Assembly (NCBI GenBank): GCA_038142505.1
Contig: JAYQKD010000001.1
Location: 139,418 to 203,417 of the forward strand
DNA: 64,000 bases
Direction of reading: 5' to 3'
Source of the DNA: Gammaproteobacteria bacterium
GTDB lineage: Bacteria > Pseudomonadota > Gammaproteobacteria > Magnimaribacterales > D2472
Part shown: in pieces, positions 7,938-60,987 of the stretch
Layout of the letters: every line of letters begins with the position of its first letter
How positions within the stretch are numbered: position 1 is the stretch's first letter
Notes under the pieces: model-generated
The model's database searches: none
The model's input: the letters and a program-made list of their open reading frames with translations, nothing else
Told to the model about the DNA's origin: nothing
Translations under genes and position numbers: made by a program

Positions 7938-7984
7938 GCGTGTATTATCTATTAAAATGGCATAAAAGTATTACAAAATTAAAA

Positions 7985-8617
7985 ATGAAATCTAGAAATT
8001 TAATATTGGTAAGGCATGGTCAAAGCGAATGGAATGCAAAAAATCTTTTTACAGGATGGAAGGATCCAGGGCTTACTGATCAGGGGGTTTCAGAGGCAAA
8101 GAATGCCGGAAAATTAATCTTAGAACAAAAAATTGAATTTGATGTTATGTATACCTCTATGCTTTCAAGAGCTCAAAAGACTGGGGATATTATTCTTGGA
8201 ATTTTAAATCATAAAGAAATACCAATAATAAAAAATGAAGCTCTAAACGAAAGACATTATGGAAGTCTAGCGGGATTAAATAAAGATGATGCCAGGAAAA
8301 AATGGGGAGATGAACAAGTTCATATATGGAGAAGGTCATTTGACATGCCGCCTCCTGATGGAGAAAGTCTCAAAGATACAGCTGATAGAGTGCTTCCATA
8401 TTTTGAAACTGAAATTATGCCAAAGGTTATAAGTGGTTCAAGCATATTGATTGCAGCTCATGGAAATTCTCTTAGAGCTTTAATAATGAAACTAGATTCT
8501 ATTTCATCAGAAGATATTGTTAAACTTGAAATTCCTACCGGAGCTCCAATTCAATATGAATTCACTTCAGACGGCATTGTGGATAAAAAAACAAATCTTT
8601 ATGAAAAACAATTGTGA
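7985..8617 (+). CDS. gpmA: 2,3-bisphosphoglycerate-dependent phosphoglycerate mutase
   Basis: LVRHGQSEWN, LNERHYG, AAHGNSLR. Confidence 0.95.
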   Translation: MKSRNLILVRHGQSEWNAKNLFTGWKDPGLTDQGVSEAKNAGKLILEQKIEFDVMYTSMLSRAQKTGDIILGILNHKEIPIIKNEALNERHYGSLAGLNKDDARKKWGDEQVHIWRRSFDMPPPDGESLKDTADRVLPYFETEIMPKVISGSSILIAAHGNSLRALIMKLDSISSEDIVKLEIPTGAPIQYEFTSDGIVDKKTNLYEKQL

Positions 8618-9624
8618 TCAAGATTCTCAATTATCAAAACAAATAGTTCAGTGGTATTTAAAAAACGGTAGAAGCGATCTTCCATGGAGAAAAAATGTAA
8701 CTGCTTATAGAGTTTGGATTTCAGAAATCATGTTACAACAAACCCAAGTAAAAACTGTAATTCCTTTCTTTAAAAAATTTATAAGTAAATACCCTAACCT
8801 CAAATCACTTTCTTCAGCTAATGAGGAAGAAATCTTAGCTTTGTGGACCGGGTTAGGATTTTATAGAAGAGCAATTAATATATACAAGGCAAAAGAAATT
8901 ATCTTAAGTGATTTTAAAAACAGATTTCCAAAATCATTTGATGATATTGTCAGGCTTCCTGGAATTGGCGAATCAACAGCTGGAGCAATAATGTCTTTAG
9001 CATATCAAATTCCATACCCCATACTGGATGCTAATGTGAAGAGAGTTATTTCAAGATATGAATCAGTTGGAAATGATTCAACGCATAAATCAAATAAAAA
9101 GTTATGGGCTTTATCTAATAAACATACTCCAAGAAAAAATATTTTTTCATACACCCAAGGAATAATGGATTTAGGTGCAACGATTTGTCATAACTCAAAA
9201 CCAAATTGTGATATATGTCCTTTGCAAGATGATTGTAAAAGCGCCTTCAAAGTCATAACAAGTAAGAAAGAAACAAAAAAACAAAACCCAACCAAAAAAA
9301 TAAATTTTGTACTAGCAAGAAGTAACGATTCATTTTTATTATTTAAAAAATTAGAAGAATCATTTTGGGAGGGTTTATGGACACCGCTTGAATTAGAATC
9401 CGAACCATCCCCCCTTGCCATGGAAAGATGATATTAAAACTATAGAAGAGATTAATATCAAACATAAGCTATCTCATCTCAATTTAGATATAAAAGTAAA
9501 TATTTATGAATACAAAAAGATCTTTAAATTAAAAACTAATAAAAAATATAAATGGGTTAATAAAAGTAATATTGATAAATTCGGTATGCCAAAGCCCATT
9601 AAGTCTATAATAGAAAAATCATGA
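8601..9624 (+). CDS. mutY: A/G-specific adenine glycosylase (frameshift near 9415)
   Basis: WISEIMLQQTQV, HhH LPGIG, C-x6-C-x2-C-x5-C Fe-S motif; followed by yggX. Confidence 0.92.
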
Positions 9625-12676: not shown

Positions 12677-12749
12677 GCCCAGATAGCTCAGTTGGTAGAG
12701 CAAAGGACTGAAAATCCTTGTGTCGGTGGTTCGATCCCACCTCTGGGCA
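12677..12749 (+). tRNA. tRNA-Phe (GAA)
   Basis: GCCCAGA acceptor pairs with TCTGGGC; D arm AGCTCAGTTGGTAGAGC; anticodon loop CTGAAAA; T arm GGTTCGATCC. Confidence 0.97.
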
Positions 12750-12859
12750 CCTTTGCTGCTTTGAATTAAATCAGTTTGATGCTAGATTAACGAAATTGAA
12801 TTATCTAGGTCATTTACATGATATTGGACCATTAAGATAACCAAAAGTATTTCTTCTTT

Positions 12860-13054
12860 AAAGTTGATGGATTTATTGCAGCTGTAGGCACTACACTCCC
12901 CAAAATTAAACAGGCGTTTAATTGCCCTAAAAGAGTATAACAAAGATATCAAAATAGGCATTGCAGATCCAAGTGGAGCTGCTTTATATAATTATTATGC
13001 AAATGGGGAACTAAAAGCTGAGGGATCTTCATCTTAACAGAAGGAATCGGACAA
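12860..13054 (+). pseudogene. Internal fragment of cysteine synthase (CysK-like)
   Basis: Across frames KVDGFIAAVG...LKEYNKDIKIGIADPSGAALYNYYANGELKAEGSS.TEGIGQ; no N- or C-terminus found. Confidence 0.7.
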
Positions 13055-13418
13055 AACGTATTGTAAAAACCTTGAAAAACTTGAAGTAGATTTCCCCTTT
13101 CATTTAGATGATTGGAATCGCTTGATGTTATGTTTAAGCTAATAATAGAAAAATTTTCCATCTGGCAATTCAATTGCTTCTTGTTTTTTAATAAATTTTA
13201 TTATTCCTCCAACTATTCCTTTTTGTGGTCCAGGTTTGTCCAGAGATATAAAAGATTCAAAATACTTGATAGAATCATAAACTGCCATGAAGAACGCCGT
13301 CATCAGAAATATTATTTATTTGAACTTCAACAATGCCCATTGAAGATTGAGTTAAATATTAATCAGAAATATAGAACAAAATAAAACTTCATTTGAATAA
13401 ATGACACATGAAGAAAAT

Positions 13419-13600
13419 TGTTCAAAATTAAGATTGAAAAAATAATAAATCCAAATACAATTTTGAACACTGTCTAAAACATGCATGGATCGAGTCATCA
13501 CTGAAAACTTTATAAAAAAGACTTTCTTAAAAGAATAATTCTTTGTATGAGCAAATATTTAACTTTTTGAATTTTGAACAATAATTTTATGTTCAAAATT
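13419..13600. repeat. Four copies of 11-mer TGTTCAAAATT forming two inverted pairs
   Basis: 13419-13429 fwd, 13459-13469 rev, 13570-13580 rev, 13590-13600 fwd. Confidence 0.8.
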
Positions 13601-13636
13601 TAAATTATTTAAATTATTTTAATTTTATTGAAAAGC

Positions 13637-13701
13637 TGGACTGACTGAAAACTTTCAAGGGGAGCTTGAAATATCTTTATAGATATACTCCAGTCAGTCC
13701 A
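13637..13701. other. Three-way-junction structure (candidate ncRNA element or complex terminator)
   Basis: P1 TGGACTGACTG/CAGTCAGTCCA; P2 TTTCAAG-GGGAG-CTTGAAA; P3 TATCT-TTAT-AGATA. Confidence 0.6.
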
Positions 13702-13716
13702 AATCTGATGCTTAAA

Positions 13717-13926
13717 TTAACGACCAACCTTCCATTTATATGGAGTGTTGCCAGTAATTTTGAAGTACAGTACTAGATTGATTACGTGTACTACTAGCAA
13801 AATTGTGGCAATTAAAATTGCCCAGCCAATGTTTGTATGAAGGCTTAATATTCCAGAGAAATATAAAGATACTCCTGCAAAGAGAGTCCAAATAAACATT
13901 GCTAAAAATCCTAAATAATTTTTCAT
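13717..13926 (-). CDS. Small two-TM hypothetical protein
   Basis: 69 aa hydrophobic ORF; ATG overlaps the ferredoxin TGA. Confidence 0.7.
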   Translation of the reverse strand: MKNYLGFLAMFIWTLFAGVSLYFSGILSLHTNIGWAILIATILLVVHVINLVLYFKITGNTPYKWKVGR

Positions 13927-14247
13927 AATTGTTTTCCTTGATTTAGTAGTTCTACTGAAACCTTAATATCTGTTTTAGCAGTTGATTGGCAAGCTAGTAC
14001 ATAACCAGATATTTACATCCACAGGATCTAATACATAATTAAAATCAATCTCTGGCCTTATCTTGCCTTCAATAATTTTACATTTGCATTTTCCACAACT
14101 ACCAACTTGGCATTTATGTGGCCAAGCAAGACCAGATCTAAGTGCTCCAGCCAAAAGAGTCTCACCTTTTGAAATATTTATTTCCTCATTACTTGGAAAA
14201 ACATTCACAGAGAAACTCTTTTTTTTGTTAAACAGCCCCTTAAACAT
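13923..14247 (-). CDS. [2Fe-2S] ferredoxin (frameshift near 14010)
   Basis: CQVGSCGKC and, in corrected frame, GYVLACQS; resembles the N-terminal domain of XylA-type electron transfer proteins. Confidence 0.88.
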
Positions 14248-14250
14248 AGT

Positions 14251-15361
14251 CTAATAAGCCTTTTGAATTTCGCTATTAGGGTAATATTCTTCAATTATTT
14301 TCTTTTCGCCCTCAGTAGCATAGTTTTTATCCCAGTTATCAAGATGTTTTTGAACAAACTTTCTGAATAATCCTGGTATGAGAGTTAAAACAAATAAAGA
14401 AAAATATCCGATACCATAATTTGGTCCCTTTACGTCATCTAGTTCCCAAAAATATGTTTCACCTCTAACATGATGATCACACTGTCTACCAATTTCTATA
14501 AAGAACCAGCTTGTGAATAAATTATCATTATCCCAAGAGTGTCTATGTTCAAAGGCTTTCCGTATTCTCTAATTGAGTCCATAATGACCCATAAAATTGA
14601 GAGCTTCTAAAAGAAAGTTAGATATTATCCAAACAATTAATAAAGCTAAAATTCCTATCAATCCCCCACTCCAAACAAAAAGAATAATTGAAGGAAGGCT
14701 ATATAAATAACCTAATAACCATTTATTTTGTAATGAGAAAAATCCTTTATTTAGCTTCTTTAATTTCTCTGCTTCTAGATCAAATGAGAACTTTGATTGT
14801 CCAGCATGAGATAGCCAAGCATGAGCATAAACATTTCTTCCTCTTGGCGCTGTTGCCGGATCGTCTTGATGTCCAAGATCAAGGTGATGATTATATACAT
14901 GAGCATAAGTAAAGTGAGATGCTCCACTAAGTGCCATAATAGCTCTAGAGACTTTTAAAGCCCTCTTTCTTATTGTGAGAAAGTTCATGACCATAAATAA
15001 TGCCTAGACCAGCCCATAAACCACATGACAAAGTTGAACCAATAATTTCATTAATTCCTAAATTTCCTATATATACAAATTGATATAAATTATTTGCTAG
15101 TGCTAATTGAAGAACAATGAATATAGGTAACATCAGATACATAACAGAATATTGAAATGTTTTAATTCCATAAGAATTTCCATCATCATCAAAATCTGCT
15201 CTTAGATGAATATCTTTAGTTAAAGTATCAAGAATAGTATTCAAACCAAATAAGAAAACTCCTATCCATGAGTAAATACCACCAATATATAGTCCGATAA
15301 TAGTTGCAACTGTCATCACAGGTACAATTAAATAACGAACATTTACATACAGCTTTTTCAT
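14251..15361 (-). CDS. Membrane di-iron monooxygenase of the AlkB/XylM family (two frameshifts)
   Basis: His boxes HELSH, HVYNHH, NFMGHYGL, DHHVRG; XylM-like termini RYLIVPV and WDKNYATEGE. Confidence 0.88.
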
Positions 15362-15506
15362 AGAAAAACTCCATTCGTTAATGTTAAATCCTGGGAATAA
15401 CTTCCGTTTTAGCGCCTTCTTTTGTGTCGCGGCAATAGGATCAAATCACGACAACGCTATTTAATGAAAAAAAATGAGTTTTGTAAACAGCAAATTAAAA
15501 AAATAT

Positions 15507-22918: not shown

Positions 22919-24121
22919 TTAACCTTGGTTGTGAGCTATTTGAGCAGCAGTTACAAAAACTTCCATTGCGATTTCTAACTCTTTCTCACTAATAAATGTT
23001 GGAGCTATTCTAAGGGTATTATTTTTAGGATCTTTGCCATAGGGATGAGTGGCTCCTGCAGGAGTCAAAAGCACTCCAGCCTCTTTACACAACTCAACAA
23101 TTTTTGAAGCAATGGGTTTTTGTGATTTGAAAGTTATAAAATAGCCACCAGTTGGTTGAGAATACTCACCCACATCTTTATCAAGTTTTTCTAATGCTTT
23201 ATAGGCTATCTCAAATTTAGGCCTTATTAAATCAGCATGCTTTTTCATATGATCTTTAACAGCACTTAAATCTTTAAAAAATTTTGTATGTCTTTTTTGA
23301 TTTACTTTATCAGGACAGATAACCATCGAGCCTCTTATTCGCTTAATTAAATCTAAGTTATCACTTGCAGCTGCCATAAATGATAAACCACCACCGCCAA
23401 AAGTAACTTTAGAAAAAGATGTTACAACTACTGTTTGATTGGTTGTGCTATTTTGTTCTGCTAATTTCCAAACAGCTGTTTGATCTTTTGTGGGAAGGAA
23501 ATCATGAACTAAGTAGGCATGATCAAAGAGAAAAAGAAAATCTTCAGAATAATGTCTACCAATTTTAAAAAGTTCATTTATATTTTCATCGCTATAAACT
23601 TCACCAGATGGGTTTGAGTGCCGTGGCACACAAATTATTCCAAGCACATTTGAGTTGGTTTGAAGTGCATCTGATAGCACATCAAGATCAACACCATCCT
23701 CTACCAAGGGCACTGTTATCATTTCTATTCCAAAATCTTCTAACATTCTAAAATGTCTATCAAATCCAGGGACAGGGCAGATAAATTTTGGAGCTTCAAT
23801 GTCCTTCCATGGCACCGGTTTAGCAAATAGATATTTTGAAAGAATCATCTGATAAGTAAGCATTAAGCTAGATTGCTCGCCTGTAATAACATTATCAACA
23901 GGGGCCGATAGAAGATCTGAGCCAAGAATTCTAGCATCTTGGATACCAAAAGGCTCTCCATAATTTCTTAAGTCTACATCGCCATCAAAAGGCTCAACAT
24001 TCATGCTTAACAACTCATTAGCCAAATCAAGCTGATATGCGTCAGGTTTTCCTCTGGTGATATCAATTGAAAGACCTTGGGCCTTGATTTGTTCAAAATA
24101 AGTTAAAATGTTCTCTGACAT
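22919..24121 (-). CDS. PLP-dependent class I/II aminotransferase (aspartate aminotransferase-like)
   Basis: DITRGKP, CPVPGFDRHF, HSNPSG, SFSKVTF, LRIAPT. Confidence 0.85.
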   Translation of the reverse strand: MSENILTYFEQIKAQGLSIDITRGKPDAYQLDLANELLSMNVEPFDGDVDLRNYGEPFGIQDARILGSDLLSAPVDNVITGEQSSLMLTYQMILSKYLFAKPVPWKDIEAPKFICPVPGFDRHFRMLEDFGIEMITVPLVEDGVDLDVLSDALQTNSNVLGIICVPRHSNPSGEVYSDENINELFKIGRHYSEDFLFLFDHAYLVHDFLPTKDQTAVWKLAEQNSTTNQTVVVTSFSKVTFGGGGLSFMAAASDNLDLIKRIRGSMVICPDKVNQKRHTKFFKDLSAVKDHMKKHADLIRPKFEIAYKALEKLDKDVGEYSQPTGGYFITFKSQKPIASKIVELCKEAGVLLTPAGATHPYGKDPKNNTLRIAPTFISEKELEIAMEVFVTAAQIAHNQG

Positions 24122-24194
24122 AGGGCTTATTTTATAGGATTAAATCGTTAGTGGTATATATTATAAGAAGATTTAAAACTTTCTTGGACTAAAA

Positions 24195-25091
24195 ATGAAT
24201 TTGTGGGTGATTACAATCATATTAATAATAATAATTTCATTATTAATCACTATTATTTACTTACAGATTCAAAATAGCGTAAATAAAGACAAGGGTCAGG
24301 AGTCAATTAAAGAACTAGATAGGGCTTTAGTAAAACAAGAAGATACCTTATTAGATTTAACAAAAGACATACAATCATTTCATGATCCTTTAAATAAATT
24401 AAGAAGGTATTTATCTGGGGGAACGCTTGCAGGAAAATTTGGTGAATGGTCACTTGAATCAATAATGCAAGATATCTTTAATCCAAATCAATATGTAAAG
24501 AATGCAGAAGTAATCAAAGGTTCTGGGAAGAGAGTTGAATTTGTTTTAAAAATGCCTGAGGGGCTTTTGCTCCCTATTGATGCCAAATTTCCATCAGGAC
24601 TTTACGACACTTATCTTGATGCAATTGATCAAACAGATGAAAGACTAATTAAAAAATCTATAGATGATATAAAAAGACATGTGGTAAAGGACGCATCTGA
24701 TATTCAAGAAAAATATGTTCAATCAGGTGTAACTGTGGATCTTGGGATTATGTATATACCAAGTGAGTCTTTGATGCAGTTAATTGATTCTATTGAAAAT
24801 CTTAGAGAGTCTATTTTTAGAGATTCAAGAGTTCTAATAATGGGGCCAAACTCTCTAGCGGCATATTTAATTAGTGTTCATATGGGTTTTAGAACTCTTG
24901 CTCTCAATAACAGGGCTGGAGAAATCATGGAAGAATTTGGCAAGTTAAAAAAAGAATTTGAAAAATTTGGAAGTTCAACTGAAGAATTATTAAAAAAAGC
25001 AGATGCGATGCTCAAAGCAGTAAATGAACATGCTACGCGAGAGAGACAAATGAATAAAGCTATTAAAAATATGGATCAGTTAGACAATTAA
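24195..25091 (+). CDS. rmuC: DNA recombination protein RmuC
   Basis: N-terminal TM, GKFGEWSLE, LPIDAKFP, MYIPSE. Confidence 0.9.
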   Translation: MNLWVITIILIIIISLLITIIYLQIQNSVNKDKGQESIKELDRALVKQEDTLLDLTKDIQSFHDPLNKLRRYLSGGTLAGKFGEWSLESIMQDIFNPNQYVKNAEVIKGSGKRVEFVLKMPEGLLLPIDAKFPSGLYDTYLDAIDQTDERLIKKSIDDIKRHVVKDASDIQEKYVQSGVTVDLGIMYIPSESLMQLIDSIENLRESIFRDSRVLIMGPNSLAAYLISVHMGFRTLALNNRAGEIMEEFGKLKKEFEKFGSSTEELLKKADAMLKAVNEHATRERQMNKAIKNMDQLDN

Positions 25092-45375: not shown

Positions 45376-45966
45376 ATACTTCGCTCATACACATCATAAA
45401 AAAATGGATTCCAGAAAAAAGCAAAGTTATTGATTTTGGTTGTGGCGATGGATCTTTATTAAAAGATTTAATTGATGAAAAGAAAATACGAGGCTATGGC
45501 GTAGAAATTGATCATAATAAAATTCAAGAATGTATTTGATAAAGGTATATCTGTTATAGAAAAAGATATAGACGAAGGCATTCAAGACTTTGAGTCATGC
45601 AATTTTGATGTTGCTGTAATGGCAAGCTCAATTCAGTGCCTTAAAGAACCACACTTGGCTTTAAGAAAAATGCTTAAGCTATCAAAACAATGCATTGTTA
45701 CTCTCCCAAATTTAGGTTTTTGGAAGTGTAGACTTGATTTAGCCCAAGGCAGAATGCCGGTTACACCTAATCTTCCATCAAGCTGGTATGAAACCAAAAA
45801 CTTACATCTTTGTACAATCAAAGATTTTGAAACACTGTGTTTTGAAGAAGGTTTTGTTATTAACGAAAAGTTTTTTCTTAATGATAAAGGCGCTAAGAGC
45901 GCTATGGCTTCAACATTTCCAAATACTTTTGCCTCCGAGGGAATTTATCTAATTGCTAAAAAATAA
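45372..45966 (+). CDS. metW: Methionine biosynthesis protein MetW (frameshifted)
   Basis: DFGCGDG, PNLGFW, GRMPVT, WYETKNLHLCTIKDFE. Confidence 0.9.
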
Positions 45967-46549
45967 TAAAGTTCTTCTTGCTTCGTCTAATCAAGGAAAA
46001 ATAAGGGAATTCAAAAAAATTTTTAAGGGCTTTGATTTTATATCTCAAGAAGATTTAGGAATTGATGATGCTGTTGAGGACGGAATTTCTTTTTTTGAAA
46101 ATGCATTAAAAAAAGCTAGACATGGTTCAAATAAATCAGGACTCTTAACAATTGCTGATGATTCTGGATTGGTTGTGCCAGGATTAGATTATGAACCAGG
46201 AATCTATTCAGCAAGATATGCAGGTGAAGGAGCCTCAGATAAAGATAATAGAGATAAAATTATTGATCAATTAAACAAAAAAAATGTCTCATCTCTTGAG
46301 GCCTTTTATATATGTGTCCTAGTCGGTGTTCGCTCAGATTTAGATCCCATCCCTCTTTACTCTGTTGGTGAAATTCATGGAAGAATATCAACAAAAAGTT
46401 CAGGTGATGGTGGTTTTGGCTATGACAAAATTTTTTATCCAAATGGATATGATGTATCTATGGCATCTATTGATCCTGAAGAAAAAAATAAAATAAGTCA
46501 TAGAGCCGTTGCTGCAAGATCATTCATTAAAGAACTTGAAAAACTTTAA
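45953..46549 (+). CDS. rdgB: dITP/XTP pyrophosphatase
   Basis: SSNQGK, ADDSGL, PGIYSARY, GFGYD, SHRA. Confidence 0.93.
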   Translation: MLKNNKVLLASSNQGKIREFKKIFKGFDFISQEDLGIDDAVEDGISFFENALKKARHGSNKSGLLTIADDSGLVVPGLDYEPGIYSARYAGEGASDKDNRDKIIDQLNKKNVSSLEAFYICVLVGVRSDLDPIPLYSVGEIHGRISTKSSGDGGFGYDKIFYPNGYDVSMASIDPEEKNKISHRAVAARSFIKELEKL

Positions 46550-47670
46550 TCCAAATAAAGTACCTATATCGCTTTATATTCATCTGCCCTGGTGCGAGAA
46601 AAGATGTCCCTACTGTGACTTCAATATCAATACAAATAAATTAGATGGAGATGAAGAAAGGCTATTGGTTGCTCTTAATCAGGATTTAAAAGACTCAATG
46701 AAATATATTCAAAAAAGAAAATTCTGCTCTATTTATTTTGGGGGAGGAACCCCATCATTGGTATCTTCAAAGATAATAAAAAAAATTATCAAAAATTTAA
46801 AAGATATGGGCCTTTTAAAAAAAGAATGTGAAATTAGCTTTGAATTAAATCCAAAAGAGGTCACTTACTCTTATATAGAAGAAATTATTGCTGCTGGGGT
46901 TAATAGAGTTTCAATAGGTATACAAAGTTTTGATCAAGAAGTGTTAGGTAGCTTAGAAAGAAACCATAGTGCTAATGATAGTTATCAAGCAATTAAAATT
47001 GCTTCTGAGTTTAAAAACATCAATATTTCAATTGATTTAATTTATGGAATTATGAACCAATCAATTGCTTCTCTAAAAAAAGATATTGAAATATTCTGCA
47101 AAAATAAAATTGATCACTTATCTCTGTACCAACTAACAATTGAACCCAATACAATTTTTTATAAAAAAGAATTAAATATTCCATCTGATAAGACCATAGA
47201 GACAATGGAATTGGCTGCAAAAGATATTCTCAATAGAAATAATATTTTTCAGTATGAGGTTTCATCATGGTCCAAAAATAACAAAGTAAGTAAACATAAT
47301 ATGAATTATTGGCTATACGGTGATTATCTCGGTATAGGTCCAGGTGCCCACAGTAAAATTACAACAAAAAATTCAATAACAAGGAATGATTAAATTAAAA
47401 AAAGTTGAATCTTATATCAATAATCCGTCAAAGATAACAAAGGTTAAAATAGATGACTCATCATATGATCTTGATCTTGCAATGAATGTCTTGAGAGTTA
47501 AAAACGGCACTTCATTTAAAGATCTTGAAAAAAGAGGCGTTTATATACCCGATACTTTTAAAGAAAAATTATTTATGGGTTATAAAAAGGGTTTAATAGA
47601 AAAAAATTTAATTAAGGCAACCGATCAAGGATATAAGTTTCTGAACGATACCGTAAATAATTTTAACTAG
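46536..47670 (+). CDS. hemW: Radical SAM heme chaperone (one frameshift)
   Basis: YIHLPWCEKRCPYCDFN, GGGTPS, HNMNYW, GPGAH. Confidence 0.9.
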
Positions 47671-52794: not shown

Positions 52795-53268
52795 ATGAAA
52801 GTTCTAGAAAAGTATATAAATTTTGTAGGTGAAAAAATATCCTACCTGATACCAGTCATGGTTGTCTTGATGATTTTTGTAATAGTTAGTAGGTATTTTT
52901 TTGGGATTGGAAGAACTGATATCCAAGAAATGGTTATGTATTTTCATGCTCTAGTGTTTCTTGGTTGTGCGGGTTATGCAATGAACCATGATGAACATGT
53001 TAGGGTGGATATCTTCTATAGAAATGCATCTCAAAAATATAAAAAGAACATTAATTTTATCTTTGGTTTAGTATTTTTGTTGCCTCTTATAGCCATTACA
53101 TTTTTTTATTCTATTGAAACAATCGAGGCTTCTTGGAAAATGAGTGAGGCATCTACAGAGGCTGGTGGTTTGGCATATGTATACATTCAAAAAACATTAA
53201 TGATTCTGTTTCCACTAACACTTTTAGCAGCGTTAATTAATCAATTTATAAAAACAAAATGGAAATAA
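52795..53268 (+). CDS. dctQ: TRAP transporter small permease
   Basis: Four TM, HVRVDIFY. Confidence 0.88.
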   Translation: MKVLEKYINFVGEKISYLIPVMVVLMIFVIVSRYFFGIGRTDIQEMVMYFHALVFLGCAGYAMNHDEHVRVDIFYRNASQKYKKNINFIFGLVFLLPLIAITFFYSIETIEASWKMSEASTEAGGLAYVYIQKTLMILFPLTLLAALINQFIKTKWK

Positions 53269-54535
53269 TTCCTTTATTACTTTTAGTTTTAATATGTCTA
53301 GCTCTTTTGTTTGGATATCCGGTTGCATTCACACTTTCTGGGGTCTCTATTCTCTTTGCTCTAATCTGTATACCGTTTGGAATATTTGATGAATCAATTT
53401 TAAAAAGTATTCCTCTAAGAATATTTGGGATTATGAATAATGTGACTCTTCTTGCAGTTCCCTTATTTATATTTATGGGGACTGTTCTTGAAAGGTCAGG
53501 TATTGCTGCAAAAATGTTAGAAAATATGGCTTTGGCATTTAAGAATATTAGAGGCGGTCTTAGCATTTCAATAATTACTGTGGGTGCTTTATTAGCAGCA
53601 AGCACAGGTATTGTTGGCGCAACAGTTGTAACAATGGGTCTTATGTCTCTTCCAATAATGATTCAACAAGGATATAAAAAAGATTTCTCATCAGGCCTGG
53701 TTGCATCAACTGGAACCTTAGGACAGATCATTCCTCCTTCAATTGCATTAGTGCTTTTGGGTGATGTTATGTCTAATGCATATCAAAGAGCTCAAAACAA
53801 CATGGGTATTTTTTCTCAACAAACTGTTACTGTTGGAGATTTGTTTATTGGCGCCATAGTTCCTGGAATTATGATTTGTCTTGGGTATCTAATTTATACA
53901 ATCTATCAAAACTATAAAAATCCAAATATCTTGTTTGAGCCAGAAGCAAATTCAGCATCATTCAAAGATATTCTTAAGACTCTTGCCTTGCCACTACTTT
54001 TAATTATTTTGGTTTTAGGTTCTATTATTGCTGGAATAGCGACACCAACAGAGGCATCTGCTATTGGAGCTGCTGGTGCACTTTTAATAGTTCTTATCAA
54101 CGGCAAGTTATCTTTAGGACTTTATAAAAGAAACTAGTCAGAAAACTGCAATAGTATCAACAATGATCTTCACAATATTAATTGGTGCTTCTATTTTTTC
54201 ATTAATTTTTAGAGGAGTTGGCGGAGATAATTTAATTGATTTGGTGTTTGGCTCTCTCCCTGGCGGGCCATATACAGCATTAATTTTTGTTTTAATTTTT
54301 GTTTTCTTGCTTGGATTTATTTTAGATTTTATTGAAATTTGCTACGTAATTGTTCCTTTGGTCGCCCCACCTCTTTTGATGATGGGTTTTGATCCAGTCT
54401 GGTTAGCAATTCTTATTGCAATTAATCTACAAACTTCTTTCTTAACACCTCCCTTTGGCTTTTCATTGTTTTATTTAAGGGGTGTTGCAGATGAATCTAT
54501 ACAGACATCAGAAATTTATAGAGGAGTTATTCCAG
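53259..54535 (+). CDS. dctM: TRAP transporter large permease; frameshift near 54120; C-terminus truncated at a junction near 54535
   Basis: GTLGQIIPPS, ATPTEA, NLQTSFLTPPFG, IYRGVIP, then non-homologous sequence. Confidence 0.9.
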
Positions 54536-54937
54536 CTCAAAATGCTAAAATATTCTCCAAGCCTATTGGTTCTTTGCTCATTAAACCAATATATTAGTTT
54601 GTCGTTTTGCTCAAAAATAAATAGATCACGCTCATGTTTTGAGCATTGATTTGCTTTCTTGATACTAAAACTCCAACCAGTCCAATTTTCAAAAGAAGAT
54701 TTCAATTCTTTTGGGATTTCCTTGCAGTTTATTAGTGCTTTTTTCATTGATTCATGAAATTTATTATGGCTCCTTTCAAATTCTTTGCTTAAAGGATATT
54801 GATAAATAAAAAGATAGATAACCTGTCTGTCAGATGTCTTGAACTGCATCTATATCTAAATATGCTTAAACTGTGACCTCTAACATCTCAATCTTTTTTA
54901 ATGTTCCGTCAAGATAAGTAATATTTGGATAATTCAT
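54535..54937 (-). CDS. Hypothetical protein, frameshifted, cut at the junction
   Basis: ORF 54508-54849 plus upstream MNYPNITYLDG start. Confidence 0.4.
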
Positions 54938-55499
54938 CTTAGCTCCGTTTTCCTGGAATTGATATTTTGAAAAAAATATTTAGTATTTTTTTATTAAAAT
55001 TGATTATTGTTTTATTTTTTATAATGATGAGTTTCTTTTTAAGACTAAAGATAAATTTAGTCTCTTCTTTGAAGCCTTTTGTATTAATTTTTCTGCCTGT
55101 CTTATTGTAAATAATCTTTCATAGAGTTCTATTTCGTGAAGTTCATCAAGCTCAATAAAAATTTTTTCAAACTCTCTGGTAAATTAGATAGAAAATTTTT
55201 TATTGGTAATAACTTGTTTAGAAAAAAATGTTCATAATATTATCAAGCGTAGAAATAAATTTTTTATTTGTATTATTTTTTTGATCATTTTGAGCTCGAT
55301 AAAAAAGGCATAAACTCAAAATAAGCATGTATTGTCAAAAAAATTATTACTAAAAAAAACAAGCATAAAGTTAAATAAGAGGACCACTTAAGAAAAAAAT
55401 TCCAATTTTTTTTCTTTTTTGTATCTCAATTTCTAGTTGTATATTTTTTTTATTCAACACGCTATTTAATATGGCTATGTCACCATCCTGTATTTCTTA

Positions 55500-57130
55500 A
55501 ATTCTTCTCTATTCATAATCATTTTTTTCTTATTATCTCCATCTAGAATTTTTGTAATGTATTCTTTTTAGTTTGAAGTTTATCTCTTTGGTCTCTATCT
55601 GAGACTCTAACTCTTTTTCTCAATTATTTTTTCTAAAATTGATTTATCAAAATTTTCAAAGTTGTTTGTTCCATCTTTTTTGTAGATTTTTCAAAATCAT
55701 CTTGTTGTTTGAGCACCAATTCATGACTTGAAGCATTCTTTAGATGTTCATATTCTCTTTCTTTAGAAGCCTTTTGACTTTTAGCTCCTTTACCCTAAAA
55801 CTTTCCTCTATCCTATCCTTCCTTTTTTCTTTTGCTACTTTAAGCAATGTATTTGTAGTTTGTACAAAATGTGAACATGTTTCTTTTAAGAGATATAAAA
55901 CTTTTAACAGGTATTCTCGATAAGTAATGCGATCAGATTCGGATTTCAGTGACTTTTCAATTAGCACACTGATGGCAAACAGGAACACAGGCATTAATGA
56001 CAAACCTATGGCACTTAACCCAATAAAAACTTTAATAAAAGATTTAATCTGATCCTCGTTAATGTTTGAGGCCTCTTTTTGAAACCATAAGATGCTAAGT
56101 TTAAAAGAAGTTTCCGGTTTTTAACTCTGAAATCTCCTGATATACTATTACTCTCGCGCAGTCTATGTATATTATTTTTATCCTGTTCAATGGCTTTGTT
56201 CATTTTCAATTTGAAACGTATATTTTTGAACAAGATCGTTATCAAGATTTTTGCATCAATTAATATTAACTGTTCTTTTAGACAATGGGGCAAGCAGTTG
56301 GAGTTCGTAGTTATATTTTTTTTTTTTATTTCTGAACCTATGTATTTTTTTTTTCTTTCTCAAAGTTGAAAGCTTTGAATAGTGTCTGGTTTCAAGCTCT
56401 TTTATGGATATGTCGTAACGTTCTCTTAGCATTTTTGCCTCATTTACTTCTTGGAATTTTCATTTCTTAAATATCCGCTTGATAAAATCTTTTGTGTTCA
56501 TTGATAGCATTGTCTATAGATTGAAATGACCAAATTTTTGATATTATTCTCAATAGCATTTTTTTCTAAAAAATTATTTTTTGATATTACTGTATCTCTA
56601 ATATTTTTAAGTGAAATAATTTCATCCTGAAGGTTTTTTGCAAGCTCTTTGTTGGATTCTAATAATTGAGAGTCAGAAATATAATTTTTAAAATTACTAA
56701 TATTATCTTTCCTGGTTTTAATTTGCTTTTCAGTAGTGGCGATAGTTGCTTCATTATCTTTTATATCATCATAGAGCTCAATCTAAATTTGATTCTTTTG
56801 TCTTGATGCGTATCAATGTCAGAAGTAAAGAAGCTAATAAGAATATGCTGGTAACGCTATACCAGATTTTAATCAACGATCTCAGAAATTGCAACTACCA
56901 ACATATAGATCATTTTGAGTATTTCAGATTTTTTTAGACTCACTATCATGCATTCTAGTAACCATCCTTGCACTCTCAGATGTTTATATAATTTAATTGT
57001 TATATTTTGACCACTGTTGAATCTCATGGTCAGTGGTTCCAATCTTTTTTGATTTTAAAAATAAAAAAGAAAAAATAAACATTACAAAAAATATAATTAT
57101 TAGAGTAGTTACATTTATTTGAGTAATTAA
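55500..57130 (-). CDS. One or more fragmented membrane-anchored coiled-coil hypothetical proteins (boundaries uncertain)
   Basis: ORF pieces 55740-56003 and 56015-56293; K/E-rich helical stretches and hydrophobic segments. Confidence 0.35.
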
Positions 57131-57141
57131 ATTATCAAAAA

Positions 57142-57990
57142 TCATAATATTGCGAACTTATGATTATCTTGATGAATTTTTGCTAAAAGCGCATCATTAG
57201 AATCTAATATTCCTGCCACAGATCCACTTATAAGCTTAATATCTTGTTGCTCAACTAACTCTTTAATAGTTTCTATCTCAGCTATGTCTTCCTGCATAGC
57301 AACTGCCTCTTCTTCCGTTAAGTCCAAATCATGGCCAGCTAAATTAACATCAATTTCAACGCTTCTGATCTTAAATAGTTGCTCTCTAAGATGCGACTCT
57401 TGAGCAAGCACATGCTTAATCTTGTCTAATGTTTTTTCGAGTTGCCTTTTTTCGTTTTCAGCTAAATTCTCTTTGTTAGCAATTAGGCGTTTAAGCTCAA
57501 CCATGTCTATATTTAATTTATCGATATCTTGCACATCTCTTTCTAACGATGAAAGCAGTTTGTTGAATTTTTTTATTGTCTACTATTATCAAAATTAGTC
57601 AGTGACTCTAGTTTTTTAACTCTTGAGAATTTTTTTCTATCTCAAGCTTTTTAGAGCAGTTTTGAATCCAATGCAGCCCACTCTTGTAATTTATTATTAC
57701 CTTGATCTTTTAAAAAATTAATTTTAAAGATGCTATTTAATAAACGATTCTTATCCTTTCAGCTCATAAGTCTTTGTTTTGGAATCTCGAAGTTTCTGCT
57801 CCCATTCTTTTTTTATTTTATGAACTACAAGATCAGGGAGCATTTTCACCAGAAAGGGTTGTAGTATCTTCAACCAGTTTGGATACCTTCGTTGAATGCA
57901 GTTCACTGTTAGGTACTATTATTTTTATTTTTATTGATAAGCCGCCCTATAAGCTTTTCAAATTAATAATTAATAAAATTGATGCACATC
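57142..57990 (-). CDS. Coiled-coil hypothetical protein (fragmented; 5' end approximate)
   Basis: Heptad-like 130-aa ORF 57142-57534 and upstream pieces such as LVKMLPDLVVHKIKKEWEQKLRD. Confidence 0.5.
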
Positions 57991-58142
57991 ATTAGCAATA
58001 TATTTGTGTTGACAATATATTCTTTAAAAAAGTTTATTTTGTTAAAAAATATAAAATATGCTACTAATATAGCATATATATGCACTAGAATTCATAATAT
58101 GTTAAATAAATGATTTAAAAGCAGCTAAATATAAGTTAAAAT

Positions 58143-59473
58143 ATGGTTAATGATAATCAGACAAATTTAGAAATTAAAATTATACGCGCGATTGCAGCTC
58201 GAAGAGGGCATATTGAATTAGCAAAAATACAACTTTGAATAATTATAATTTTGAGAAGTTAGAGGGAAAAAATCCCAGCCGAAATTTATCATTCCTCTAT
58301 TTTAATTTGCTGCAAGCACATAAAGATATCTTTAATAAAAGATCCAAGGAATTGAATGATTTTAAGGATAAAAGAATAAAAGCACTGATTTCAATAATAG
58401 CTGATAATGATTTTTGGGATAAAGTGTACACGCCAATTGTAAAAGACCTTGATAATCTAAATAAAAAAATGATTTTATTATTAATTCATCATATATATCC
58501 AAAAAAAAAATTGCGAAAGAGAAAAATCAATTATCTTCAGATTAATATATTTTTATATATGGGGGTAATCCATATAGCTATGAAATTCTAGGAATAAAAA
58601 AAAGTGAAGATGACATTGTTGTTTTACAAAAAATAAAAAAAACGTTCTTTTTGAGATTGGTATTCTAAATAATAAAATTGCAGATGCTGCTTTTTATATT
58701 AATTATATTGGAAAAAAGTGATAATTTTTTTATTACGTCCGATCTTTTTGAAATATTTATCTGATCTCCTAATTGAATGCTTCGACTTGCTTGACTCTCT
58801 ATGTAAATTATATAGTGGCAATGAATTGATGCTTGATGAAGATATTATAAATTTTGGTGACAAAGAGCTTTTCAATGAACGAATTAATTAGGGATTTTGG
58901 ATTTTACAAAGGCTTGGTTGTCCAATTGGATCGAACTCATTTATATTTGAAGAAAGAATTTCTAATATTAAATATGAAGCAGTGCTTTATGACAAATTTG
59001 AGCTTAATTCTATAGATAAAGCTCCCAATACTGTATTAGATGAAAAGTCAGATAGTTGGCTTAACTTTAAAGATAAAACAGATCCTTCAATAAAAATAAT
59101 TGGAATATGGAGCTGGTACAAATATTATAAATTATCCATATCAGCATAAATATTCATATGAATTATCTGTATTAACACACATCAAAAAACTTACTATTTA
59201 TGAAGATAAAATAGACAAATTAATTATTGGTAATGATTAAAGAAACGGGTTCTGGCAATGTTGGAAGAAGAGCTGCATTACAAAGCGCTGAGGAGATAAA
59301 AAAATCTTTAATCAATGTTGAAACTTTTTCTTGTTGCTGGGCTGGGGAGCGGAACCGGAAATGGAGCATTACCAATAATTGCATCAATAGCTAGAGATTT
59401 AGGAATATTAACTTATGCATTGCAACAACTCGTTTAAATTTGAAGGCAACAAAAAGGTTAACCAACAAAGATT
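58143..59473 (+). CDS. N-terminally extended FtsZ/tubulin-like GTPase (frameshifted, C-terminus cut at junction)
   Basis: From 59090 across frames: [78 protein letters not shown]. Confidence 0.75.
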
Positions 59474-60380
59474 CCATAGGTCCTGAAACAACTTCTAAAA
59501 ATCCTTTTTTTAATCCAATCTCTCTATAGGCTTCAAATTCCTCTGGAGTTACCCATCTTTCAATGGGTAGATGATTCAAGGTTGGTCTTAAATATTGTCC
59601 AATGGTAAGAATATCTACTTTATTAGCTATTAGATCATCCATTGTTTGCTCTATCTCTTCATCTGTTTCACCAAGACCAAGAATAAGGCTAGTTTTTGTT
59701 AGGACCTTTGGGTTAATTTTTTTTGATTCTGCTAAAACATCAAGAGTTTGTTGATAACCAGCTCTAATATCTCTGACAGGATGGGTGAGCCTTTCAACAG
59801 TTTCTATATTTTGTGCAAAAACTTCTAACCCACAGTTAACAATGGTATCTATCGAAGATGATAGACCCTTGAAGTCTGGTGTTAGAGCTTCAACTGCAGT
59901 CCCAGGATTAAGGTCTTTTATAAGCTTTACTGTATCTGCAAAATGTTTTGCACCTCCATCAGGCAAATCATCTCTATTAACAGATGTTAAAACTACATAT
60001 TTTAATTTCATTATTTGAACAGCTTTAGCAGTGTTTAATGGTTCGTCAATGTCTAGCCAGCCTTTAGGATTGCCAGTATCTACTGAACAAAATTTACAAG
60101 CTCTTGTACAAACTGAGCCCATTAACATAAATGTTGCCGTTCCTGCCGACCAGCATTCAGAGATATTTGGACAATGAGCTTCTTCACAAACTGTATTCAA
60201 TCTCTTTTCGCTTACCTGATTTTTTATCTTATGGAAATTTGGATTAAATTGAGCTTTAACCTTAAGCCATTCAGGTTTTTTTAGATTAGGAATATGAGAG
60301 TATTGATTACCCTTTTGGCCATTCTTTACAGCTTTAACCCCGTCTCTATTGATGATTTTTTTTGTTGGAATAATTTCCAT
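59474..60380 (-). CDS. lipA: Lipoyl synthase, C-terminus truncated
   Basis: [12 protein letters not shown] and CTRACKFC; ends EVVSGPM without the conserved VRSSY. Confidence 0.93.
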
Positions 60381-60382
60381 AT

Positions 60383-60987
60383 CTAAAATATAGGCTCTAA
60401 AAGTTCAATTGCAAGGCTCTCAACATCTTTAATTGAAACATCATTCTCATAGTCTTTTATCTGTGCTACCTCAAGCCCCTCATAACCACATGGGATTAAT
60501 TAGAGCTAAATGGAGTTAAGTCCATATCTACATTTATGCTTATGCCATGATAAGTTTTACCTTTTGAAATCCTAAGGCCTATTGAAGCAATTTTCTTATT
60601 ATCTACATAAACTCCTGGCGCTCCATCAACAAAATTAGAATCTATTGAGTAATGTTCTAATAGAGATTTTGTGAACTCTTGAAGGGTTTTCACTAAAGTT
60701 TTAGGCCCTAGGCTAGACTTTTTTATATCGAGCAAAAAGTATATTACTAATTGGCCAGGGCCATGATAAGTAACTTCTCCGCCTCTATCTGACTGAAAAA
60801 CAGGAATGTCTCCAGCATTTAAAATATGTTTTTGATCAGCTGCAGTTCCTAAGGTAAAAATTGGTGGATGTTCTAAAAACCATATTTCATTTTTAAAATC
60901 TTCATTACTAATATGAGACTTCATCATATGAAGAGTGTCACCGTATTCGCAACGACCTAATGATTTAAAGCTTAAACTTTCAGACAC
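60383..60987 (-). CDS. lipB: Octanoyltransferase (3' frameshift)
   Basis: [37 protein letters not shown]. Confidence 0.93.

Follow-up and report, generated by a model that had tools for sequence, protein, structure and literature searches.

The 64,000-nt stretch of gammaproteobacterial DNA analysed here (the window) carries, at 58143-59473, a succession of FtsZ-like motifs interrupted by frame changes, and the question is whether this is a second, unusually long FtsZ or something that only resembles one. To our knowledge, few bacterial proteins are as strongly conserved as FtsZ, which is normally single-copy with a short N-terminus. A preliminary description of the locus proposed a second FtsZ-family protein with extra N-terminal sequence and an altered GTP loop, in an accessory context.

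We find that 58143-59473 is colinear with residues 1-474 of P0001, an intact 687-residue protein encoded by a single ORF in an independent public assembly; the alignment comprises 14 ungapped tblastn pieces in shifting frames that are 47-100% identical to P0001. The first residue of P0001, M1, is matched by the window ATG at 58143, which bears out the proposal that coding reaches back to this codon. Read directly, the window gives IKIIGI at 59088, in a frame that is open from 58893 as had been claimed, then GAGTN one frame over and ICINT near 59160, while the T4 loop at exactly 59336-59365 is followed by ARDLGILT and by FKFEGNKK at 59438-59461; all of the FtsZ motifs are present in the order and at the positions first proposed. 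By sequence comparison, this likeness exceeds chance: the host's own FtsZ, used as a tblastn query against the window, finds 20/33 identical residues (E 2e-10), and Pfam Tubulin matches 59216-59434 with 26.9 bits (E 2.6e-6), a score under the 33-bit cut-off because four stops lie inside the match. The case held up against the proposal, namely a separate start before 59090, a normal loop and the ordinary FtsZ of a contaminant, did not materialise. The indels fared differently as features: the motifs are indeed readable across them, but errors of assembly are their most likely origin, and the copy itself is cut short. The cut falls at 59473 (residue ~474-480 of the 687), from which point the assembly continues directly with the 3′ end of lipA, encoded on the opposite strand. 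An alternative genetic code or introns are rejected, since neighbouring motifs are separated by shifts of frame and not by in-frame stops, and a decayed duplicate of the host's own ftsZ is ruled out by a DNA identity of just 75% over 122 nt, the sole similarity of the island segment within the genome. Judged by its sequence, 58143-59473 represents a real FtsZ paralogue gene encoding ~690 residues, present here in a noisy and truncated copy and referred to below as the long FtsZ.

Table 1. Coordinates of the long FtsZ copy, the surrounding island and the flanking genes in the window
Feature	Position	Strand	Details and evidence
Predicted long FtsZ paralogue gene, 5′ 70%	58143..59473	+	~687 residues whole; residues 1 to ~474-480 here; ~13 frame changes
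N-terminal domain part (P0001 residues 1 to ~342)	58143..59087	+	Alignments A2/A3
FtsZ GTPase domain, first ~135 residues, T1 loop GIGGAGTN to FKFEGNK	59088..59473	+	tblastn, Pfam
Altered tubulin signature (T4) loop, replaces AGMGGGTGTG	59336..59365	+	Direct reading; P0001 same
Assembled island segment (4939 nt; GC 27.9%)	54535..59473		blastn vs G020
Neighbour gene, 285-aa protein, signal peptide and coiled coil, frame-shifted	57166..57970	-	Homologues P0030, P0031
lipA, intact but for last 18 codons (VRSSYRAERALEKNNAGL), missing in assembly	59474..60380	-	20 relatives
TRAP-type large permease gene (dctM-like), last 19 codons missing in assembly	53259..54534	+	Alignment to G020

P0001 consists of a ~340-residue N-domain, an FtsZ GTPase domain, a probable FtsZ C-terminal domain, a linker and a tail peptide, LDVPTFLRKQVD. 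In P0001 a single ORF encodes both the FtsZ part and the extra N-terminal sequence suspected from the window, an architecture shared by 7 of the 28 representatives of the N-domain family, which carry a fused Tubulin/FtsZ domain. Tubulin (PF00091) scores 96.3 bits over residues 344-499 of P0001 (cut-off 33), and residues 342-654 align to the solved FtsZ 2vaw_A with an E-value of 3e-44. TIGR00065 covers residues 335-655 (model positions 11-333 of 353) with 198.6 bits, under its equivalog cut-off of 295.2 bits, and PF12327 (FtsZ_C) reaches 20.8 bits against a cut-off of 27.

Three functional elements of the FtsZ fold are of particular interest. The canonical signature loop is GGGTG(T/S)G; in both the window and P0001 we find GSGTGNG, with two changes, so that the altered GTP loop first noticed in the window stands, and its presence in P0001 means that it is not a sequencing error. 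The T4 loops of the relatives P0002, P0003 and P0006 are the canonical GGGTGTG. The two substitutions, G to S and T to N, could weaken GTP binding. The T7 (synergy) loop, NxDxxD, is needed for GTPase activity in the polymer and is present in P0001, where SLINIDLEDLK aligns to GHINVDFADVK of the host FtsZ; this region is absent from the window copy. The conserved C-terminal peptide of FtsZ binds FtsA/ZipA, and the host genome carries both ftsA and zipA. P0001 ends in YLDVPTFLRKQVD, compared with FLDVPTFMRKQVD in the host's own FtsZ; the tails of the long FtsZs close in RKQVD, the type of the own family, whereas R(R/K)QAD is usual in the remaining class members listed. Together, zipA and the tail motif point to a gammaproteobacterial host, and the group resembles a SAR86-type clade. 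P0001 keeps the tail, so that the long FtsZ, at first proposed to be non-divisome, may well engage the divisome.

That this would be a second FtsZ is borne out by an intact canonical ftsZ on contig C3 (369 aa; Tubulin 165.2 bits and FtsZ_C 93 bits, both over their cut-offs), which is placed between mraZ and rsmH; the long FtsZ lies outside the division/cell-wall cluster. Identity to the host's own FtsZ is 44% for P0002 and 32% for P0001. In a tree of 45 rows obtained with a quick method, with FtsZ loci L086 and L087 of family f3 left out, all eight long FtsZs share one side of a branch with six own-family FtsZs (SH-aLRT 98). The branch of P0001 is very long (6.31), which makes its position uncertain; the placement of P0009, P0010, P0015 and P0017 is likewise unsure from long branches. 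With this reservation for P0001, the nearest FtsZ kin of the long FtsZ appear to be the FtsZs of the same bacterial family, and its core probably branched off recently from the FtsZ of the host family.

The N-domain is rare and distinctive. Its family numbers 28 representatives in 1.84 billion proteins, a profile search of 266 genomes from the order finds it in 2, and its members share the motifs IADDxFW, EKSIIxRxIYxLxGxNPY, LWGGSxKAFxNE and WLxxK (alignments A2/A3). It likewise exists as a stand-alone protein and in fusions with different modules, e.g., a PDZ domain in P0028. The N-domain has no match in Pfam, NCBIfam, PHROG or PADLOC; Pfam searches of 30 members at E ≤ 10 give no N-domain family and no HTH family, and the ESM Atlas holds no usable match to residues 1-335. 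An AlphaFold2 model (pLDDT 82.6, pTM 0.84) predicts a helical bundle and a small three-helix/two-strand unit. Foldseek with the whole N-domain against the PDB finds no match at E ≤ 0.001 (best, 0.42), and a VIA wide search with the whole model gives helical-bundle rows of Z ≤ 7.1, rated unspecific by VIA. Within the whole model, residues 232-286 superpose on a MerR regulator (Z 5.7, 2.2 Å over 53 residues) and on a transposon excisionase (Z 5.3, 54/57 residues). A model of this sub-domain (pLDDT 73; secondary structure E4-6 H7-14 H18-26 E38-40 H41-50) has as its top rows mostly MerR-type, excisionase, RacA and pSK1 Par DNA-binding domains, in weak matches with VIA Z ≤ 4.3 and a Foldseek TM of 0.54 at E of at least 1. 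Residues ~232-286 are, on these predicted structures, a possible MerR/excisionase-type winged helix.

The accessory context proposed for the gene proves to be an island that varies among strains and is flanked by dctM and lipA. Divergently transcribed from the long FtsZ is the 285-residue neighbour, 93% identical to P0030 and 88% to P0031, the longest contig of the P0031 cluster being 6700 nt, equal to that listed for P0001; neighbour residues 16-283 map to 57166-57922, and the upper end at 57970 is estimated. On one side of the island, the lipA frame continues into the FtsZ remnant as far as 59391, with lipA homology ending at 59474; LipA of 20/20 relatives terminates ...VSGPMVRSSYRAERALEKNNAG(L), and the conserved RSSY motif of LipA is located in the missing 18-codon tail. 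On the other side, a 34-letter piece in island contigs of two runs falls at 54468-54501 and hints that the dctM end of the island strain differs from that of the window. A tRNA-targeted island is rejected, the sole tRNA of the window being at 12677 and none adjoining lipA in the loci of five relatives. A phage origin is likewise rejected, as scans of viral contigs with P0001 and P0002 found no relative, as is a defence system, PADLOC giving no match on nine proteins. A scan of genome contigs with P0001 returned 39 pattern matches, 0 of them confirmed.

We judge it probable, with modest confidence, that the locus as a whole is best explained by a long FtsZ that is real and intact in life, island-borne, polymerising and tail-docked, with an N-domain that couples filaments to something else. 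The FtsZ core would bind GTP and polymerise, alone or mixed with housekeeping FtsZ, and the tail would dock the long FtsZ on host FtsA/ZipA at the membrane. The N-domain would couple these filaments to another partner, most likely DNA via the putative winged helix at residues ~232-286. In this way the long FtsZ could tune division or steer it elsewhere, or it could set where DNA lies with respect to the Z ring.

The gene could instead be real and act apart from division, either as the DNA-partition motor of a mobile element, a counterpart of TubR-TubZ, or as a division-blocking effector in conflict or defence; we regard this as unlikely. The variable island location and ORFan company are what such an element would lead one to expect, the N-domain occurs alone and in other fusions such as that with PDZ, its weak likeness to centromere-binding and excisionase winged helices includes pSK1 Par, and an excerpt from Kaur et al. 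is quoted in support. The content of the island argues otherwise. At E ≤ 0.01, PHROG and PADLOC searches of the island proteins give nothing beyond two weak unnamed PHROGs for small island frames, with none for P0001 (a further PHROG matches a G169 frame); no integrase, relaxase or replication gene is found in the window island or the G169 island; and the viral-contig scans give no relative of P0001 or P0002. Tubulin_2 (PF13809, TubZ-like) matches just 2 of 30 members, with a best E of 0.0036, under its cut-off, and the conserved host-type tail points to FtsA/ZipA and not to a TubR-like adaptor.

Quite unlikely is a chimeric misassembly, in which a 4.9-kb segment of a rarer organism was spliced in and the genome itself has no long FtsZ. 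Contigs of four public runs cover 54535-59454 with 0-4 substitutions and 12-86 gaps per piece among the matches listed; the four runs belong to one study, possibly the window's own source, and are thus not independent of the window. Among these listed matches, the contigs of the segment diverge from the window on both sides, extending 651 nt ahead of 54535 (two runs) and 755 nt beyond 59454 (two runs; ~654 nt are needed to complete the 687-residue gene), depth is 5-24 over the island compared with ~140-940 in the flanks, and abundant contigs have normal dctM and lipA ends that hang loose at 54534 and 59474, all in favour of a chimera. The loss of 18-19 codons from each flanking gene at the joints and the absence of the segment from the lipA loci of 20 genus relatives (0/20) fit it too, and no contig joins the island to lipA or dctM among the matches listed (32 of 1452 pieces). 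However, in G169, from another genus, a 4.27-kb island that encodes a 376-residue stand-alone N-domain homologue (E 9.7e-35) sits precisely between full-length copies of lipA and dctM, and a random chimera would not land at the identical site. Across genus loci the distance between lipA and dctM spans 9 nt to more than 1.4 kb, and the junction is variable in about half of them; the FtsZ part and tail are of the type of the host's own bacterial family; two chimeric joints in register would be required; and the final 34 letters of the island contig fall on dctM in two runs among the matches listed. In the closest relative, G020, 121 nt stand in place of the island. We conclude that the dctM/lipA junction is an island hotspot and that the island is real.

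A true pseudogene, i.e., a long FtsZ that really decayed and was truncated by a deletion that also took the lipA and dctM ends, is very unlikely, for although the ~13 frame changes in 1.3 kb are far above the 2 gap openings per kb of the core against G020, and the cut at residue ~474-480 and a lipA without its last 18 codons would suit it, near-identical contigs among the matches listed hold the missing letters and pass the cut, the one extra nucleotide of dctM near 54116-54119 is absent from most short-read contigs (among the matches listed), indel noise is genome-wide in this assembly, and losing the end of lipA would be costly for a 1-Mb free-living genome.

The long FtsZ as a real, intact gene is most readily reconciled with the broken reading frame through the assembly itself. 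The run contigs are 3-8% longer than the window over 54535-59454 among the matches listed, and at 58854-58905 they hold 99 letters compared with 50 in the window, where P0001 is ~19 residues longer. Frames that stay free of stops for 150 aa or more account for 77% of the genome compared with 93% of the syntenic G020 stretch; the whole genome assembly is indel-noisy. The frame changes and the cut at 59473 are most likely artefacts that arose from low coverage of the island and a consensus prone to deletions, and we infer that the gene is whole in the living strain from the contig extents and from P0001, a relative with differing sequence. The practical lesson is that, where coverage of an island is low and the assembly is prone to indels, a live gene can pass for a pseudogene and neighbouring core genes can be clipped.

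The long FtsZ gene is apparently undescribed, and literature searches returned no described link between the N-domain and FtsZ filaments. It would represent a second FtsZ that gained a 340-residue domain and changed its nucleotide loop but kept its anchor-recruiting tail; extra genes are costly in a streamlined genome of ~1 Mb, yet the long FtsZ is there, in a variable island. The N-domain is found alone and, also in other lineages, fused to more divergent FtsZ-like cores, some of them very divergent, which points to a functional link with FtsZ filaments. A more specific proposal, improbable but worth stating, is a one-chain coupler of DNA to filaments, in which a DNA-binding winged helix is fused to a polymerising FtsZ that docks on FtsA/ZipA. 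If true, some strains of a streamlined marine bacterium could link a DNA site to the Z ring or separate the two, and this would be a new way of timing or placing division, or of segregating DNA, carried on a swappable island.

Comparison with known systems places these features in context. The sub-domain model superposes on RacA (TM 0.54), on pSK1 Par (Z 3.8, 50/53 residues) and on a MerR regulator (Z 4.3, 2.1 Å over 50 residues), and excisionases also superpose; in contrast to the MerR and excisionase winged helices it has no HTH sequence match, and the scores are in a range where a common small fold can match by chance. With TubZ/TubR and PhuZ, the long FtsZ shares a tubulin-superfamily GTPase on accessory DNA and a possible DNA-binding winged helix. 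In TubZRC, the winged-helix DNA binder is a separate protein, TubR; the long FtsZ differs in being, by sequence, an FtsZ proper, in having the adaptor-like part in cis and in keeping an FtsA/ZipA-type tail. FtsZl-1 and FtsZl-2 likewise represent additional members of the FtsZ superfamily, encoded in accessory operons away from the division cluster; Makarova and Koonin reportedly described them in 2010 as deep, very divergent branches, FtsZl-1 being without the FtsZ C-terminal domain. Set against that description, the core of the long FtsZ appears to be a recent host-family offshoot with both a probable C-terminal domain and a tail. The closest comparison is with the housekeeping FtsZ of gammaproteobacteria (TIGR00065; P. 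aeruginosa 2vaw), with which the full core aligns over residues 342-654, T1 GGAGTN and T7 NIDLED are kept, and the tail, LDVPTFLRKQVD, is nearly the same as LDVPTFMRKQVD of the host. Unlike housekeeping FtsZ, the long FtsZ adds the ~340-residue N-domain, has GSGTGNG as its T4 loop, scores under the TIGR00065 and FtsZ_C cut-offs, and resides in a variable island, not in the dcw cluster.

The long ftsZ, encoding a second FtsZ with an N-terminal domain (N-domain) of about 340 residues, must be read across frames in the window. FtsZ motifs are present where a preliminary description had placed them, in changing frames: IKIIGI at 59088 with GAGTN one frame over, a T4-loop motif exactly at 59336-59365, ARDLGILT after the ICINT-region motif, and FKFEGNKK at 59438-59461. 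The IKIIGI frame is open back to 58893, and an ATG is present at 58143. The host's own FtsZ aligns here with 20 identical residues out of 33 (E = 2e-10), and the Pfam Tubulin profile scores 26.9 bits with four stops within the match. At 59473 the assembly passes into lipA, and it is this, rather than an end of the gene, that stops the FtsZ-like reading.

With a 40-residue open piece (59315-59434) as the query among longer proteins, we retrieved a single match, P0001, a 687-residue protein that is 91% identical to the query; its gene lies on a contig of 6.7 kb that was assembled independently from a public run. Its N-terminus corresponds to the window reading from the ATG, and the window is colinear with it to residue 474 in 14 ungapped pieces (47-100% identity) joined by about 13 frame switches. 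P0001 scores 96.3 bits for Tubulin (residues 344-499), 20.8 bits for FtsZ_C, below the cut-off, and 198.6 bits for TIGR00065 over residues 335-655, below the 295.2-bit equivalog cut-off; residues 342-654 align to a solved FtsZ (E = 3e-44), and sequence comparison finds no solved chain for the first 340 residues. The protein shares the GSGTGNG loop with the window, has the T7 loop NIDLED and the C-terminal tail YLDVPTFLRKQVD, and is 32% identical to the host FtsZ. This intact relative bears out the earlier proposal of one open reading frame from the ATG, with some 300 extra N-terminal residues and an altered loop.

That the long FtsZ is a second copy is confirmed by an intact canonical ftsZ on another contig of the genome (925 kb, 11 contigs, rated 65% complete), which encodes 369 residues (Tubulin, 165 bits; FtsZ_C, 93 bits) ending in FLDVPTFMRKQVD; the window itself is G000:C1:139418-203417. 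The canonical gene has mraZ and rsmH as its neighbours at the start of the division cluster, and ftsA follows about 13 kb further on; the usual order is ftsQ-ftsA-ftsZ, at the end of the cluster.

The N-domain has no match in Pfam, NCBIfam, PHROG or PADLOC. A HMMER profile of three N-domains, searched against 1.84 billion representatives, matches 28 proteins at E ≤ 0.001; 11 of these reach E ≤ 1e-10, and 5 reach E ≤ 1e-30. In seven of the 28 (P0001, P0003, P0006, P0009, P0010, P0015 and P0017) a Tubulin/FtsZ domain follows C-terminally, some of these cores being very divergent (27-35 bits); the rest are stand-alone, at 115-580 residues, or carry other parts, e.g., a PDZ domain in P0028. P0002 (667 residues) has an N-domain 31% identical to that of P0001 and a canonical GGGTGTG loop. 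Its identity to the host FtsZ is 44%, and far higher within the GTPase domain. P0009, P0010, P0015 and P0017, from other lineages, score 27-75 bits for Tubulin with degenerate signature loops such as GLGGHTSD; these could be GTPases that are inactive or have become specialised. We built a quick tree from 45 FtsZ cores, of which 8 are long FtsZs, 6 come from the host's family, 2 from its order outside that family and 29 from the class. All long FtsZs share one side of a branch (SH-aLRT 98) with the FtsZs of the host's family, and P0002, P0003 and P0006 form a clade (SH-aLRT 100) next to these own-family FtsZs; the exact places of P0001 and the divergent forms are unsure because their branches are very long. 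The tail end RKQVD is common to P0001, P0002, P0003 and the own-family FtsZ, and R(R/K)QAD closes most of the other class sequences listed.

An AlphaFold2 model of the N-domain from a 30-row alignment is all-helical (pLDDT 82.6, pTM 0.84), and Foldseek finds nothing for it at E ≤ 0.001. In a wide structural search with the model, residues 75-232 give unspecific helical-bundle rows only (Z ≤ 7.1). Residues 232-286, which contain the best family motif, LWGGSxKAFxNE...WL, superpose on a MerR regulator (Z 5.7, 2.2 Å over 53 residues) and a transposon excisionase (Z 5.3, 54 of 57 residues). Modelled alone, this sub-domain of a related gene in G169, a genome of another genus of the same family, adopts a strand, helix, turn, helix, strand, helix order (pLDDT 73), and MerR-type, excisionase, RacA and pSK1 Par DNA-binding domains make up most of its top rows, at weak scores (TM 0.54, Foldseek E ≥ 1, Z ≤ 4.3). 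These models offer a lead that the N-domain may contain a DNA-binding winged helix, for which we consider the chances roughly even.

In the long FtsZ, an FtsZ core that is complete by alignment and derives from the host's family, with a tail of the anchor-binding type, is fused to a new domain; the gene is an accessory one at a variable site. We infer, as the most likely way of working, that it would bind GTP and polymerise, alone or with the housekeeping FtsZ, and that FtsA or ZipA, both of which the host carries, would hold it at the membrane. The N-domain would link these filaments with DNA or with some other partner, and such coupling would alter the place or time of division, or position a DNA site. 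A protein of this build acting in partition or conflict, apart from the divisome, seems to us unlikely.

The segment carrying the gene is 4939 nt long (27.9% GC), compared with 121 nt at the same place in G020, the closest relative and our reference, whose flanks are 92-96% identical in DNA. At the left joint a TRAP permease gene (dctM-like) is without its last 19 codons, and at the right joint lipA, on the opposite strand, is without its last 18, VRSSYRAERALEKNNAGL, which are present in 20 of 20 relatives examined. Nothing like the segment occurs at the relatives' lipA loci (25 loci, 21 genomes, 1.5-kb flanks). Among 266 genomes of the order, an N-domain profile built from P0001 and P0002 matches the genome studied and G169 only, in the latter as a 376-residue stand-alone gene within a 4.27-kb island exactly between complete lipA and dctM genes. 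Five of the ORFs of that island (all except the 74-residue one) were scanned without a Pfam or PADLOC match, and no integrase or transposase match was seen in it. In the genus lipA loci (L016-L040), the final codons of lipA and dctM are 9-12 nt apart in ten loci and 220-1009 nt apart in five, and seven loci have no dctM inside 1.45 kb of lipA; the dctM/lipA junction is a variable spot. A chimeric assembly, with the segment joined to the host at random, is distinctly unlikely because the junction is variable and, in the independent assembly of G169, holds a related gene.

One relative, G008, has a second, broken lipA copy beside a dctM fragment; the pieces of this copy are 60-90% identical, and one reading of it contains 12 stops. 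Elsewhere in the window, two further stretches are without a counterpart at the same place in G020, one of them starting directly after a tRNA-Phe gene.

For the gene neighbouring the long ftsZ, assemblies of public runs contain two intact relatives, P0030 (93% identical) and P0031 (88%). Each has 285 residues and combines a signal peptide with a long coiled-coil region; the longest contig of the P0031 cluster, 6700 nt, equals the length listed for P0001. The remainder of the segment, 54535-57140, holds only broken frames without family matches.

Coordinates of the features discussed (window positions unless a genome and contig are named)
Feature	Position	Orientation	Remarks
Long ftsZ	58143-59473		
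Island	54535-59473		between dctM and lipA
Neighbour of long ftsZ	~57166-57970	minus, divergent from long ftsZ	frame-shifted; mapped via intact relatives
Indel noise, dctM	54116-54119		
Indel noise, lipB	~60492-60506		
Indel noise	45508-47393		
Indel noise	7940-9431		
tRNA-Phe	12677-12751		
Stretch after tRNA-Phe	12755-15491		
Second such stretch	24088-25088		
Canonical ftsZ locus	G000:C3:130952-135058		L001/L054
ftsA	G000:C3:146293-147396		
G169 island	G169:C1:23384-27657		L052/L046; six ORFs: 242, 74, 117, 376, 135, 162 aa
Broken lipA copy	G008:C3:178237-179146		L037, L039, L040

Contigs of the four best-matching public runs were compared with 53500-60500; these runs belong to one study that may be the window's own source, and are not independent of it. 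Summed contig depth is about 140-940 in the flanks and 5-24 in the segment, where the contig pieces differ from the window by 0-4 substitutions and 12-86 gaps each and are 3-8% longer. At 58854-58905, exactly where the window is without about 19 residues of P0001, the contigs have 99 letters and the window 50. In two runs the contig reaching 59454 extends 755 nt further (about 654 nt would finish a 687-codon gene), and in two runs the contig starting at 54535 has 651 extra letters leftward; in abundant contigs the normal ends of dctM and lipA appear as loose ends at 54534 and 59474. Most short-read contigs do not have the additional base that breaks dctM. Stop-free frames of 150 residues or more cover 67% of the window, 77% of the genome and 93% of the syntenic G020 stretch, and many genes are split into two or three overlapping ORFs; the completeness rating may be due in part to indel noise. 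We take the segment to be a strain-specific island of low coverage in a deletion-prone consensus, and we think that the island edges dropped out in assembly and took the ends of dctM, lipA and the long ftsZ with them. The long ftsZ would then be open in this very strain, and a true pseudogene, its frames broken in the cell as they are in the window, is very improbable.

Text searches of the literature returned no described FtsZ with such an N-terminal domain and no second FtsZ described in such bacteria; the nearest mention is that of Kaur et al. 2020 (PMC7159879). By sequence, the long FtsZ is an FtsZ proper and not a TubZ or PhuZ. Nor is it one of the FtsZl families as these have been described. 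It departs from the housekeeping FtsZ on three tests: the signature loop, the equivalog score and the location of the gene.
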